A stretch of DNA of 64,000 nt from a virus. Its lineage: Duplodnaviria; Heunggongvirae; Uroviricota; Caudoviricetes. The notes below the pieces were generated by a model. It ran no database searches. It worked only from the letters and a program-made list of their open reading frames with translations, and was not told the DNA's origin. This document shows positions 25,528-46,496 of this stretch, piece by piece. The stretch covers positions 45,799 through 109,798 of the IMG/VR virus record IMGVR_UViG_2724679538_000004; one strand, 5' to 3'. The first letter of the stretch is position 1. The number at the start of each line of letters is the position of its first letter. The position numbers were made by a program, and so were the translations under genes.

Positions 25528-25544
25528 GTAATAGTACGATAAAG

Positions 25545-25569
25545 AGGCCCCATGCTCTTGATGGGGCCT
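25545..25569 (+). terminator. hairpin after gene end
   Basis: AGGCCCCATGCTCTTGATGGGGCCT. Confidence 0.4.
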
Positions 25570-25736
25570 GTAGCAACAAGCGTTATGGACGTTGGTTTAC
25601 GTACTCAATGATCGCTTTGATAATCGCGAACATCGGCGGCACGATTTTGAAAAGTAAGTTAAGCATAACAGGCCTCACTTAGTTTTATCGCGCCTAGCTG
25701 CAAATACCTTTGAGCTTGCCTTTGCAGTTGCAATAT

Positions 25737-25933
25737 CTGTAGTCGCCAGATACTTACGGCACGATTTCGAGTTAAGGTAAGGTTTGAGAGTCACCAAAAA
25801 CCTGGACTTAAATCTTCTTTGAGAACAATGATGTTTAGTAAATGGTCATTGTTACTAGGTATGACCACTCTACGTTTCTTGATGAATCCAGTACATTCGG
25901 TTAATCTTAACTCAGTCGCCAGATACTTATGGC
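25737..25933. repeat. two direct repeats AGTCGCCAGATACTTA(C/T)GGC about 174 bp apart in an 800-bp noncoding gap
   Basis: Read directly. Confidence 0.5.
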
Positions 25934-25970
25934 TCAGGAACAGAGACGCAAACTCCGTTTCCTTTTAAAA

Positions 25971-25998
25971 AGCCCGGTCTAGTCAACTGGGCTTTTTA
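25971..25998 (+). terminator. terminator-like hairpin
   Basis: AGCCCGGTCTAGTCAACTGGGCT plus T-run. Confidence 0.45.
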
Positions 25999-26292
25999 AT
26001 GTCTGCTTTTTAACCAAACATACCCTCAATACTGCAACATCAGTGTCTTGCGAATCAAGATAGTGTGTATAGATTTTTCATGCAAGTGCATAAGTCTGTG
26101 GATAACTCAGGAAGGAAAAAGTGACTTCCGCGCACTTTAGGCCGGACAAGGCCTTCGAAAAAGTCAATGGGAAGAAAAAATTTGTTAAAAATAACGTTTG
26201 TTTGAATTGTATATTTTATACCTGTCAATAGTTAGCATCTTATTAACATCTTTTTTAAGAGACAGAGTTTAAAAACATGTCGCTCCAACATA

Positions 26293-26312
26293 TACTGTAT
26301 GTACATACAGTA
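26293..26312. promoter_or_regulatory. LexA (SOS) box
   Basis: Perfect 20-bp palindrome TACTGTATGTACATACAGTA (CTGT-N8-ACAG) about 15 nt upstream of the UmuD'-like start. Confidence 0.8.
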
Positions 26313-26328
26313 TTAAGAGGCGAGTATT

Positions 26329-26718
26329 ATGGGATTCCCATCTCCTGCAGCGGATTATGTTGAAAGCCGTATTTCTCTTGATCGGCAGATAATTAGACAT
26401 CCTTCAGCGACCTACTTCCTGCGAGCGGCTGATAGCCATCACCGCGAAGGAATATTGCAGGGGGCGCTGCTGGTGGTCGATTCTTCACTAACTCCGGTTG
26501 ATGGTTCACTGCTTGTATGTGCTATTGATGGGGAATTTCGTGTAAAAAAATACCGTAAGTATCCGCGTCAGTACCTGGAGGATTTAAGAACTGGCAAGAA
26601 GGAAGCATTGCCAAAGGATGACGATGGATGCACTGGCAGTACTGCCGTGTTTGGTGTCATCACTCACATTATCAACGACGCAAGAAGTGGCGAATTTGAT
26701 GATTGTCCTGTGATGTAG
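26329..26718 (+). CDS. umuD: UmuD'-like protein (pre-processed form, HumD-like)
   Basis: Begins MGFPSPAADYVE, i.e. at the position of the UmuD Cys24/Gly25 self-cleavage site as I recall it; Ser/Lys dyad positions and GEFxVKK, VFGV(I/V)xH(I/V) conserved; AAGAGG RBS. Confidence 0.8.
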   Translation: MGFPSPAADYVESRISLDRQIIRHPSATYFLRAADSHHREGILQGALLVVDSSLTPVDGSLLVCAIDGEFRVKKYRKYPRQYLEDLRTGKKEALPKDDDGCTGSTAVFGVITHIINDARSGEFDDCPVM

Positions 26719-26723
26719 ATAGA

Positions 26724-26747
26724 AAGCCCTCGTTTGTATGAGGGCTT
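26724..26747. terminator. bidirectional terminator between convergent genes
   Basis: AAGCCCTCGTTTGTATGAGGGCTT. Confidence 0.5.
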
Positions 26748-26762
26748 CTAGGTAAACACAAA

Positions 26763-27506
26763 TCACTGCATGTTGCCGAATTTTTTGTTAAGGCTTTTTC
26801 GTATTGTCTCTATGGTTTTCTCCCTATCTGAATATAGTTCGCTAACTACATAGTCCATAATCTCAAAAGCACCTTCGATATCTTTGATCCGAACTTCATC
26901 AAACGTATGACTGCCTGCATTCCCCAAGAACTTTATCGCCAAAAGATTTTGAGCAAGTTTGCTGCCCTCTTCCGGGATTTTTTCGATACGATGGTGCAAT
27001 CGGATTGTCTTACCTTTATCATTTTGCGTAGGTATCCCCATAGAGGTAAGGATATTTTCTACAGCGATTCTGATTAGGTTTGCTGCGGCACCTTGCTGCA
27101 TTAAAAAAATGGAAAAAGCAGCTTTCAGGGGGCCACTTACTTCATCCGGGCAGTTCTCTGGAATTTGAAAAACATTCAAGGAAGGAACAAAGCAAAGAGG
27201 TTTGTACCATTGATAATATTCGTCTGCCATTTCCTCTGGTTGGTAATCTCTATCCCATCCTGCCTTTCCTACGCAGGCAACCGCTTCGCCACATTTTGCT
27301 CGTGAACATTTGGCCATACAGCTGAAATAGGACTCAGACATATCGTAATCAAACCAATCTTCATTTTGTGCTTTCCTGGTACCTAAAGACTCCTCTTCAA
27401 CAAAACTATCTTGCATGATTTCCAGAGTCTTTTGTCCGCAGACCGGACAAGGCCAGTCCACATGTTTATCGCTGTAAAATCGATGGGAAATTTTATGAAT
27501 AGCCAT
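26763..27506 (-). CDS. zinc-ribbon protein; C-terminal region resembles DUF4145-type module (tentative)
   Basis: N-terminal CPVCG ... C..C; C-terminal LAIKFLGNAGSHTFDE; opposite strand to all neighbours. Confidence 0.5.
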   Translation of the reverse strand: MAIHKISHRFYSDKHVDWPCPVCGQKTLEIMQDSFVEEESLGTRKAQNEDWFDYDMSESYFSCMAKCSRAKCGEAVACVGKAGWDRDYQPEEMADEYYQWYKPLCFVPSLNVFQIPENCPDEVSGPLKAAFSIFLMQQGAAANLIRIAVENILTSMGIPTQNDKGKTIRLHHRIEKIPEEGSKLAQNLLAIKFLGNAGSHTFDEVRIKDIEGAFEIMDYVVSELYSDREKTIETIRKSLNKKFGNMQ

Positions 27507-28064: not shown

Positions 28065-28250
28065 ATGCTTAAAGAGGACTCATATCTACTAAAGGCGCTT
28101 GAAATGCGTGGCGTTGAACCTACAGTGAAAAACGCTCACGATATCTACCTTCAGTTTTCACCGGAGCTGAAACGGCTCATAAATCAATACGGGGTTAATG
28201 ACTCAAGTGTTAAAGCAATGATAGATGATGAATTAGACCATCTCATCTAA
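28065..28250 (+). CDS. hypothetical small protein
   Basis: 61-aa ORF with GGAG RBS. Confidence 0.35.
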   Translation: MLKEDSYLLKALEMRGVEPTVKNAHDIYLQFSPELKRLINQYGVNDSSVKAMIDDELDHLI

Positions 28251-28402
28251 TCGTTTCCTATGATAATGGTTTTCACTTTGAGATTGTTATTTTTCATAGC
28301 CAAAGCTGATGTTTGTGGAAGGTGGATTGATAAACGGATGCGTATTTAGGTTATACAAGTGAGAAAATTGATAATATATAAACGCGATTTTTATGTGATG
28401 GA

Positions 28403-40748: not shown

Positions 40749-41383
40749 GCAAATACATCATCAACGTATCGTTTCAGACTCGCGTAAATAAAACCACGCG
40801 CACGTTGGAAATCGCCGAGTCGTTCGGGCTTGGCCTTGACGAAAAAGAGTGGACGCTTTACGACAATCTGGAGCTGGAAGTTAAGCAGGGCGATGTAGTG
40901 TACATCACCGGCCAATCCGGTTCAGGCAAATCAGTTGTGCTGCGCGAACTGCAACGCCAGATGAAAGATGAAGGGCTTTCTGTGGCCTCCATCGATGATT
41001 TTACATTCGACAATGATGTTAACGTCATCGACCAGCTAGGGAAAACAACCAGCGAAGCGCTGGGGCTGCTGTCTATGGCCGGATTGAATGACGCCTATCT
41101 CTTTGTGCGCAAACCTTCCGAAATGTCTGACGGTCAGAAATATCGTCTCAAGATCGCCAAGCTAATTGAGTCAGGCGCAAAAGTGTGGGCTGCGGACGAG
41201 TTCGGTGCTGTTCTTGATCGTGTAACGGCGCAGGTCGTGGCGTCCAATCTACAGCGTGCAGCCCGTAAAGTTGGGGCGACGGTGATGGTTGCGACAACTC
41301 ATGAGGACCTTAAAAACGCTCTTCGTCCTGATATGCAGATCACTAAGCACTATAAAGAGCGAGTGAAGGTGGAATATGCCTGA
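40745..41383 (+). CDS. small ABC-type ATPase
   Basis: Walker A GQSGSGKS, signature-like SDGQKYR, Walker B AADEFG, H-loop TTHE; ATGA coupling. Confidence 0.6.
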   Translation: MSKYIINVSFQTRVNKTTRTLEIAESFGLGLDEKEWTLYDNLELEVKQGDVVYITGQSGSGKSVVLRELQRQMKDEGLSVASIDDFTFDNDVNVIDQLGKTTSEALGLLSMAGLNDAYLFVRKPSEMSDGQKYRLKIAKLIESGAKVWAADEFGAVLDRVTAQVVASNLQRAARKVGATVMVATTHEDLKNALRPDMQITKHYKERVKVEYA

Positions 41384-44921: not shown

Positions 44922-46496
44922 ATGGAATTGGATGACAAACAAATTAAAGATTTAGTGGCAAGACGCCACCCTGAATACGAAAAGAAAAAGACACATTGGG
45001 ACTTCCTCGCCAGCACTTACGCTGGTGGGCGTGGTTGGTTCGCTGACAACATCTTTCGTTATTTCAAAGAAGGCGATCAGGAGTTTAAGGAACGTCTTGA
45101 GCGTGCTTACCGCTTCAATCACACCCGTGAAGTAGTAAACCTCATTAATAAATACCTGTTTAAAGAAGATATCCATCGAAACACAGAGGAAGCGCCTGAG
45201 CAGATCCGTAACTTCTGGAAAAGAGCGACACGCCAGAATGCATCTATCGACTCATTTATGGCTGCTATCGATTTGCAATCGTCAATCTATGGCCGTATTT
45301 GGGTTGTTGTAGATAGCACAATGAATGGTGATGTGGAGTCAGTCGCTGATGAGAAGAGGAAGAATGCACGTGCCTATGCCTACTGGATTTCCCCTCAACA
45401 AATGCTGGATGTGGCATGGGATGATGACGGCAATATGTTATGGGCGTTAATTGTGGAAGTTGCTCGTGATGATGCAGATCCATTTACTTCAACCGGTCAG
45501 GAATACCAACGTTATCGTCTGTGGACACAAAACGAGTGGTATCTGTTCCGTGAAGAAGTTAAGAAGAGCGCTGGCGGAGCCGGTCGCCGTCAGGCAAAAG
45601 TTATTTTAGAGGATAGCGGTGAACATAATCTCGGCGTAGTTCCCGTGTTTCCTGTTGATTGTATTGGAGAAAGCGAATCACCGTATTTCAGTCCATCGTT
45701 AATCGATGACATCGCATATCTTGATCGTGCTGTAGCCAACTATTTGTCTAACCTTGATGCCATTATTCAGGATCAAACTTTCAGTCAGTTGGCTATCCCC
45801 GTGCAGTCGATGATGCCTGGTGATGAAAGCCATAGCAAGGTGCTGGAAATGGGCACAAAACGAGTTTTCACCTACGATTCTGAAGGTGGAAACCAGCCGT
45901 TTTATCTTTCTCCAGATCCAAAACAAGCTCAGATGATCATCACTACGATTAAGACGGTGATTAATGAAATCTACCATTCAGTTGGTGTTGCTGGCGAACG
46001 AACGAAGCAGGATAACGCACAGGGAATCGATAACTCTTCTGGTGCCGCTAAGATGTATGACTTCCAGCGAGTTAACAGTCTGCTGGTCACAAAAGCAGAG
46101 CGTCTTGAAAGGGCAGAGCGACAAATTATGCAACTTGTCGCTAAATGGATGGGAGTCGAGCTGGATGAAGACCATTCTCTAATTGCTTACCCTGAGAGTT
46201 TTGATATTCGCGGTCTTACTGACGAATTTGCTGTTGCTGAGAAGCTGTCAATGCTTCAAGCGCCTGATTCTGTACGTCGTCGTCAGATGGAAATGCTCAT
46301 CGAGAAGATTTTCCCGAATATCACTGAGGCGATGAAAAAGGAATTTGATAAAGATCTCTTGAATTTTCCGCCAAAAAATGATCTAAATACCCTTGAAAAT
46401 AAGTCAGTACTTACTTATCATCGAGATACAGCTCAAGAAACCGAGCAAGATCAACCCCGAGGGAGTGGGGACTCATCTACTCAAGAAACCGAGTGA
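44922..46496 (+). CDS. portal protein (putative)
   Basis: 524 aa; position between terminase and scaffold. Confidence 0.6.
   Translation: MELDDKQIKDLVARRHPEYEKKKTHWDFLASTYAGGRGWFADNIFRYFKEGDQEFKERLERAYRFNHTREVVNLINKYLFKEDIHRNTEEAPEQIRNFWKRATRQNASIDSFMAAIDLQSSIYGRIWVVVDSTMNGDVESVADEKRKNARAYAYWISPQQMLDVAWDDDGNMLWALIVEVARDDADPFTSTGQEYQRYRLWTQNEWYLFREEVKKSAGGAGRRQAKVILEDSGEHNLGVVPVFPVDCIGESESPYFSPSLIDDIAYLDRAVANYLSNLDAIIQDQTFSQLAIPVQSMMPGDESHSKVLEMGTKRVFTYDSEGGNQPFYLSPDPKQAQMIITTIKTVINEIYHSVGVAGERTKQDNAQGIDNSSGAAKMYDFQRVNSLLVTKAERLERAERQIMQLVAKWMGVELDEDHSLIAYPESFDIRGLTDEFAVAEKLSMLQAPDSVRRRQMEMLIEKIFPNITEAMKKEFDKDLLNFPPKNDLNTLENKSVLTYHRDTAQETEQDQPRGSGDSSTQETE

Follow-up and report, generated by a model that had tools for sequence, protein, structure and literature searches.

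What is a gene for the processed form of an SOS mutagenesis protein doing in a phage genome that has no gene for its polymerase partner, and is it really under the control of the host LexA repressor? This question is raised by a 129-codon open reading frame (ORF) and the palindrome ahead of it in a 64,000-nucleotide (nt) stretch of viral DNA, positions 45,799 to 109,798 of the IMG/VR record IMGVR_UViG_2724679538_000004 (the whole stretch is called the window here, and unless otherwise stated coordinates are counted from its first letter). As judged by its similarity to sequenced elements, the window comes from an Escherichia phage-plasmid of the SSU5-like type: it runs collinear with the phage-plasmid Cyrano (pLF82) from position 64967 of that record through the record end and on to 22224, and it matches non-mobilizable E. 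coli plasmids of ~109 kb at 86-89% identity. An earlier note on this DNA had taken the ORF to be a pre-activated UmuD′ analogous to HumD of phage P1. This is a correct rediscovery of HumD, a protein that was already known.

The ORF, humD, lies at 26329-26718 on the + strand and begins MGFPSPAADYVE. Pfam assigns its residues 1-79 to the Peptidase_S24 family (PF00717; 40.1 bits, against a gathering score of 23.3), and the NCBIfam equivalog model NF051876, 'HumD family translesion DNA polymerase', is matched from end to end, with residues 1-129 of 129 on model positions 1-129 and a score of 217 bits against a cut-off of 120. In a tblastn search of phage genomes, the protein is 87.6-88.4% identical over 129 of 129 residues to HumD of P1, P7, SJ46 and D6, and 93-95% identical to unnamed orthologs in CMS-2020a, PhiR41_1 and Cyrano. 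On these matches the ORF is the ortholog of P1 HumD, and the proposed analogy is borne out by alignment. The identical protein occurs on at least 15 contigs (~109 kb) and is already held by NCBI and UniRef under the name of the NCBIfam model.

Self-cleavage of UmuD makes a new N-terminus at Gly25, which is the first residue of UmuD′. Residues 2-118 of the window protein align with residues 1-114 of UmuD′ (PDB 1umu, E=4e-24), and the same stretch aligns with residues 25-136 of full-length UmuD (PDB 8gmt). That is, Gly2 is the equivalent both of Gly25 and of UmuD′ residue 1, as was to be expected if the ORF starts at the UmuD processing site. An in-frame TAA at 26314-26316, 5′ of the humD ATG, excludes a longer N-terminus. 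The same start is found in the homologs, which we aligned as the best 120 clusters, 65-100% identical: 110 begin with Met followed by the Gly25 equivalent, and the remaining 10 contain an internal MGFPSPA, which suggests that their starts were mis-called. With E. coli UmuD and UmuD′ (PDB 1umu, 1i4v and 8gmt) the window protein shares the S24 fold family and a near-identical GFPSPAADYVE N-terminus. It differs from UmuD in having neither the 24-residue N-terminal arm nor the Cys24-Gly25 cleavage site, in a degenerate GDSM motif, an extra internal segment and a C-terminal tail of ~11 residues, and in not forming an operon with umuC.

In E. coli, umuD is repressed by LexA. Ahead of the window gene stands a perfect 20-bp palindrome, TACTGTATGTACATACAGTA, at 26293-26312 (no strand assigned), identified as a LexA operator, or SOS box, both by reading the sequence and by consensus scans. 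The form CTGT-N8-ACAG and a distance of about 15 nt to the ORF had been claimed for it; the form is confirmed, and the measured spacer between the palindrome and the ATG at 26329 is 16 nt. Relative to the 20-nt LexA consensus TACTGTATATATATACAGTA the operator carries two mismatches, both central, with CTGT-N8-ACAG intact. The bare core proves nothing by itself, because its single match in the 64-kb window compares with 0.91 expected from shuffled sequence. The full 20-nt consensus with up to three mismatches also has one match (with two mismatches), against 0.00 expected in 100 shuffles, and a relaxed scan of the 64 kb returned no second site as good as that at 26293-26312.

The consensus scan also predicts a sigma-70-like humD promoter on the + strand, with a −35-like hexamer TTTAAA at 26268-26273 and, after a 17-nt spacer, a −10-like hexamer TATACT at 26291-26296, which overlaps the LexA box by 4 nt. 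Cyrano has TTCAAA in place of TTTAAA, and TATACT is unchanged in Cyrano and in three further loci (L010, L012 and L013). A Shine-Dalgarno sequence AAGAGG, read at 26315-26320 (+), lies 8 nt 5′ of the ATG. Both the −10 hexamer and the predicted transcription start therefore lie under the operator, an arrangement that is classical for SOS repression. When a divergent LexA-controlled gene such as lxr of P1 was sought, no minus-strand promoter was predicted and no credible upstream ORF was found. That humD is LexA-regulated has been reported (PMC9603915). The Cyrano ortholog, CYRAN_98, is missing from the prophage genes expressed in lysogeny, among which its neighbour CYRAN_99 is listed (PMC9928086); this is consistent with repression in unstressed cells.

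We compared 70 nt of upstream sequence and the encoded N-terminus at ten loci, namely those of the window, P1, D6, N15, phiKO2, HK639, BTP1, Cyrano and PhiR41_1, all nine of HumD type, and of ENT39118, a phage with full-length umuDC. All eight intact orphan genes begin M/V-G-[F/Y]-P-S-P-A, and that of BTP1 reads MEFPSPA. A box of the form CTG-N10-CAG begins 32-38 nt before the start codon in the window, P1, D6, N15, HK639, BTP1, Cyrano and PhiR41_1; in phiKO2 it is farther out, at 62 nt upstream. In the P1 record (AF234172) the site is annotated as 'LexA binding site in the regulatory region of lxr and humD', and in the phiKO2 record a LexA site is annotated between divergent dinI and umuD-like genes. 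Megablast of the window against P1-type genomes finds similarity confined to the coding sequence, and the promoter shared by the window and Cyrano cannot be aligned with that of P1, D6 and PhiR41_1. Because the box is kept although the promoters are unrelated, the operator has been retained through promoter turnover, which is the best sequence-level argument here for selection on LexA control.

The comparison also places the window gene among named systems. HumD of P1, whose genome records are AF234172 and AF234173, has the same length of 129 residues, the same UmuD′ N-terminal start and the same NCBIfam equivalog; it likewise lacks a umuC partner, and in both a LexA box lies ~16-20 nt before the start codon. 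The two loci differ in their carriers, an SSU5-like siphovirus phage-plasmid here and a myovirus in P1, in the unrelated sequence of the promoter region, in the absence here of a divergent lxr sharing the operator, and in what lies downstream, a convergent DUF4145 gene here and phd-doc in P1. N15 gp26, phiKO2 gp23, HK639 gp28 and D6 orf108 also have the pre-truncated M-G-F-P-S-P-A start and an upstream LexA box, and like the window gene they are monocistronic 'morons' beside plasmid-maintenance or integration genes. As a group these orphans are put at only 65-70% identity to the window protein. In umuDC-type operons (ENT39118; mucAB and rumAB) the D subunit is homologous and a LexA box lies upstream, but both the N-terminal arm with its cleavage site (…ISA/GFPSPAADY in ENT39118) and the adjoining Y-family polymerase gene are missing from the window.

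Two side observations concern the same family. In phiKO2 (extracted locus 1181-1884) the annotated LexA site lies between a divergent dinI homolog, with which the operator is paired in that phage and not here, and the humD homolog. DinI blocks RecA-mediated processing of UmuD, and phiKO2 would thus co-induce an inhibitor of host UmuD activation and a pre-activated substitute. In the Salmonella phage BTP1 (extracted locus 1501-1873) humD is decayed, being frameshifted into 28 amino acids followed by two pieces, and unannotated fragments of its C-terminal part (residues ~45-128 or 73-128) turn up in many lambdoid and Stx phages, close to their ends or integrase regions.

That no umuC is adjacent to the ORF had been noted, and this holds well beyond the immediate neighbourhood. 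Using the UmuC protein of phage ENT39118 as the tblastn query, we found nothing significant in the 64-kb window (best E=0.077), no matches in the 133-kb plasmid pHNAH968 (NZ_CP104619.1), which at 99.5% identity is the closest complete relative at the locus, and nothing significant in the complete Cyrano genome (best E=0.27). The annotations of pHNAH968 and Cyrano list no Y-family polymerase, and the ORFs flanking humD are unrelated to umuC. If HumD acts like UmuD′, its partner must therefore be host UmuC.

We propose that the locus is a self-contained, SOS-inducible humD cassette whose product would serve as a ready-made UmuD′ surrogate joining host UmuC, and we put the probability of this at about 0.8. 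As suggested by the sequence and by the P1 annotation, host LexA in an undamaged cell would occupy the palindromic operator, which extends over both the −10 hexamer and the predicted start site, and would so block the single-gene transcript. DNA damage would activate RecA, LexA would cleave itself and humD would be transcribed, as the annotation of its homologs also implies. Since the product begins at the residue at which UmuD is cut, it needs no slow RecA-mediated processing. HumD would then dimerise like UmuD′ and join host UmuC together with RecA and ATP, so that a translesion polymerase resembling DNA polymerase V (Pol V) would be available sooner, or more abundantly, than from the host by itself. 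Damaged DNA of both host and phage-plasmid could thereby be replicated, with mutagenesis as the price. The surrogate function of the window protein we infer from its 88% identity to P1 HumD. That protein reportedly complements UmuD′ function in mutagenesis, according to the title, cited by others, of a 1999 study by McLenigan et al., and it is said in the same study to dimerise and to bind UmuC and RecA filaments.

Several points weigh against this proposal. P1 HumD was, again reportedly by McLenigan and colleagues in 1999, poorly expressed and gave good complementation only at high copy number. The protein also departs from UmuD′ in a HumD-type internal insertion (~residues 96-104) and in a C-terminal tail, N-D-A-R-x-G-E-F-D-D-C-P-V-M (~residues 116-129), that has no UmuD′ counterpart; in clusters whose overall identity is at least 65%, conservation at the tail positions is 91-98%. 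An AlphaFold2 model built from a shallow alignment of 52 sequences, every member at least 65% identical, was too poor to inform the matter (mean predicted local distance difference test score 51.7, predicted template-modelling score 0.39). In a CRISPR interference screen, humD of P1 was dispensable for lytic growth (PMC10695390), so any benefit would be conditional. Finally, since SSU5-like elements have genes of their own for DnaE, a RecA homolog and an epsilon-like exonuclease, the partner of HumD might not be host UmuC alone.

The residues of the Ser/Lys dyad deserve separate attention, because the earlier note had held that their context is retained. This is right in part: Ser36 and Lys73 are present and align with UmuD Ser60 and Lys97. 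The motif around the serine, GDSM in UmuD, is degenerate. Across the 120 homolog clusters Gly58 is deleted in every one, the Asp59 column is hypervariable (3rd percentile of column conservation), and His replaces Met61 in 103; the window protein has both the deletion and the His. The Ser column itself, at the 24th percentile, holds Ser in 74 clusters, Thr in 44 and Ala in 2, and the Lys column, although Lys is kept in 115, is conserved no better than the median column. Unlike the dyad columns, the GFPSPA N-terminus is among the best-conserved stretches. Thr stands in for the Ser in N15, phiKO2 and HK639, the last of which also has Met for Lys; D6, like P1, has both Ser and Lys. The protein has no Ala/Cys-Gly self-cleavage site of its own. 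As HumD begins at the Gly there is no scissile bond, and it is therefore an S24 member by homology and not a self-processing peptidase. With so degenerate an active-site motif, and a serine that gives way to Thr or Ala in parts of the family, the peptidase activity is probably vestigial and the Ser/Lys pair most likely an evolutionary leftover. UmuD′ is itself said to have been shown by Nohmi et al. in 1988 to act in mutagenesis without need for Ser60.

A different role for the same SOS-induced protein, which we consider improbable but well short of negligible, is that of a modulator and not a Pol V subunit. HumD would then form heterodimers with unprocessed UmuD, or contact RecA filaments or DNA polymerase III (Pol III) subunits, possibly including the DnaE and epsilon-like proteins of the element itself, and would lift the UmuD2C replication checkpoint or tune recombination or replication restart after damage. 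Products of umuD bind the alpha, beta and epsilon subunits of Pol III, and UmuD/UmuD′ heterodimers are ClpXP substrates. Several features of the carriers point the same way: Cyrano and pHNAH968 encode, in addition to DnaE, the epsilon-like exonuclease and the RecA homolog, UvsY, a gp32-like single-stranded DNA-binding protein and UvsW; humD lies near hot, a homolog of Pol III theta, being directly downstream of it in D6 and separated from it by lxr in P1; the LexA site of phiKO2 is common to humD and to a dinI homolog, a modulator of RecA filaments; and the HumD-specific insertion and tail are conserved. Against this, the sole experimental study of the family reports, by its title, that UmuD′ function in mutagenesis is complemented. 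HumD could fill both roles. We regard it as a rather long shot that SOS-induced HumD works with or regulates the replication and recombination proteins of the element through its insertion and tail, or neutralises host UmuD by forming heterodimers; if this were true, HumD would be a phage-directed switch of replisome behaviour after DNA damage.

The remaining explanations fare worse. LexA cleavage had been suggested to act as an induction sensor, so that the box would trigger the lytic programme of the phage-plasmid, and the ciprofloxacin induction of the close relative Cyrano (PMC9928086) would agree with this. We nevertheless hold it to be very unlikely, because the humD transcript is monocistronic: the box drives humD only, what follows is a hairpin and a convergent gene and not a lytic or antirepressor gene, and no minus-strand promoter is predicted at the box. 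It is the only LexA-like site in the window, the P1 gene is non-essential for lytic growth, and a second box beside an integrase and a putative repressor gene in Cyrano and pHNAH968 (described below) is a more plausible link to induction. We give just as little credence to an active S24 protease working in trans, for instance on LexA, a phage repressor or the UmuD of the host. UmuD can be cleaved intermolecularly, both dyad residues are present in the window protein, and Ser or Thr is found at the first position in 118 of the 120 clusters; the loss of GDSM, the poor conservation of the Ser column and the average conservation of the Lys column in a family at least 65% identical, and the Thr and Met substitutions in N15, phiKO2 and HK639 all argue to the contrary. 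Scarcely credible, finally, is a palindrome that arose by chance or for structural reasons with no regulatory role, ahead of a decaying remnant. The core is expected about 0.9 times in 64 kb, and humD has indeed decayed elsewhere, by frameshift in BTP1 and to truncated fragments in lambdoid and Stx phages. The full consensus was never matched in shuffled sequence, however, the position of the box is conserved across unrelated promoter contexts, and the ORF is intact, full length on a curated model and identical on the many contigs counted above.

The HumD family, its pre-truncated form, its orphan status and its control by LexA have all been described previously, and the exact protein is already publicly named. 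The sole increment is thus the host element, SSU5-like rather than P1-like, and this too is already annotated. What the locus adds to the picture is that SSU5-like phage-plasmids, too, carry the cassette of LexA box and humD that has been known in P1 since 1999-2004. Such elements are common in E. coli, and some, pHNAH968 with NDM-1 among them, bear resistance genes. As the SOS response is triggered by quinolones, a pre-activated mutagenesis factor that these elements switch on after damage would be relevant to antibiotic-induced mutagenesis; this follows from what was known before and is no discovery. What is of use in the analysis is the negative result of a probably vestigial dyad and, beside the locus, a candidate type I toxin-antitoxin module that has escaped annotation.

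Among 5,426 complete E. coli genomes, 370 contain all or part of the locus, nearly always on a plasmid; in RefSeq the gene goes under the name 'S24 family peptidase' or 'HumD family translesion DNA polymerase'. Cyrano, a phage-plasmid of the siphovirus type, makes virions and is induced by ciprofloxacin (PMC9928086). The plasmid pHNAH968 is a degraded SSU5-like element from which most virion genes are gone; it has acquired blaNDM-1, tet(A), sul1/2, a class 1 integron and mph(A), and it retains humD, the candidate toxin-antitoxin module and a truncated DUF4145 gene. Outside the window, a second LexA-like box lies ~30-45 nt 5′ of a tyrosine recombinase ('integrase') gene, beside a putative prophage repressor gene. 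The boxes, at 41044-41063 in Cyrano (L024) and 28248-28267 in pHNAH968 (coordinates of those records), have the sequences TACTGTTTACTTATACAGTG and TACTGTATTTATAAACAGTG, and their position makes possible a link from the SOS response to the lysogeny or resolution functions of the element.

Downstream of humD, as had been noted, the next gene is a convergent minus-strand ORF, at 26763-27506, whose 247-residue product Pfam assigns to DUF4145. Between the two genes, at 26720-26750 (no strand assigned), folding predicts a GC-rich hairpin of −18.2 kcal/mol (z=−3.9) on the + strand and −16.9 kcal/mol (z=−3.95) on the − strand, which is probably a bidirectional terminator; the terminator scan missed it because there is no strong T-run on the + strand. 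The DUF4145 protein has an N-terminal CxxC…C…C segment; it matches PHROG 1305, 'DNA binding protein', with E=6e-40, and there is a weak match (E=4e-5) to PD-T7-4, a defence model of PADLOC. Other phage-plasmids with an identical HumD have a gene for a ParA/MinD-like ATPase (apbC) and one for methionyl-tRNA synthetase in this slot, which is therefore a swappable cassette.

Upstream of humD, an apparent gap of 800 nt (25528-26328) is not empty. We identify at 25545-26005, with elements on both strands, an unannotated candidate type I toxin-antitoxin (TA) module. Its candidate toxin is a hydrophobic ORF of 27 amino acids, MLNLLFKIVPPMFAIIKAIIEYVNQRP, which runs on the − strand from 25663 down to 25580, is preceded by a GAGG Shine-Dalgarno sequence and is followed 3′ by a terminator hairpin at 25569-25545 (−). 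On the + strand a conserved predicted promoter, TTGAWG-N17-TAAKMT, at 25878-25906 is followed at 25914-25997 by a predicted small RNA (sRNA) of ~85 nt that ends in a conserved hairpin and then a T-run. Through a 20-nt direct repeat (25741-25760 and 25914-25933), the first part of the sRNA is complementary to what is presumed to be the 5′ leader of the mRNA for the peptide. Such a layout is that of the divergent type I pairs zorO-orzO, shoB-ohsC, dinQ-agrB and tisB-istR.

Pfam and NCBIfam hold no family for the small hydrophobic peptides of the module, which by eye alone resemble Ldr/Fst toxins, and RefSeq annotates nothing at the module in 115 complete E. coli genomes carrying it. Rfam gives no match at gathering score anywhere in the 64-kb window; a sub-threshold match to RT-17 RNA at 25999-26096 (−), with 22.5 bits against 40.4 and E=0.19, is most likely noise and was set aside. 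No functional link from the module to humD was seen, and in Citrobacter plasmids the module stands near repA and phd-like genes. Copies with 67-76% DNA identity are present in Enterobacter, Citrobacter and Klebsiella plasmids. One or two peptides of this kind, each preceded by a Shine-Dalgarno sequence of its own, are retained in these diverged copies, and their predicted sRNA-leader duplexes have energies of −41 to −53 kcal/mol. The two copies of the direct repeat change in concert, and the differences that remain between them are mostly compatible with G·U pairing. In the hairpins of the sRNA, 9 of the 27 predicted pairs show compensatory changes.

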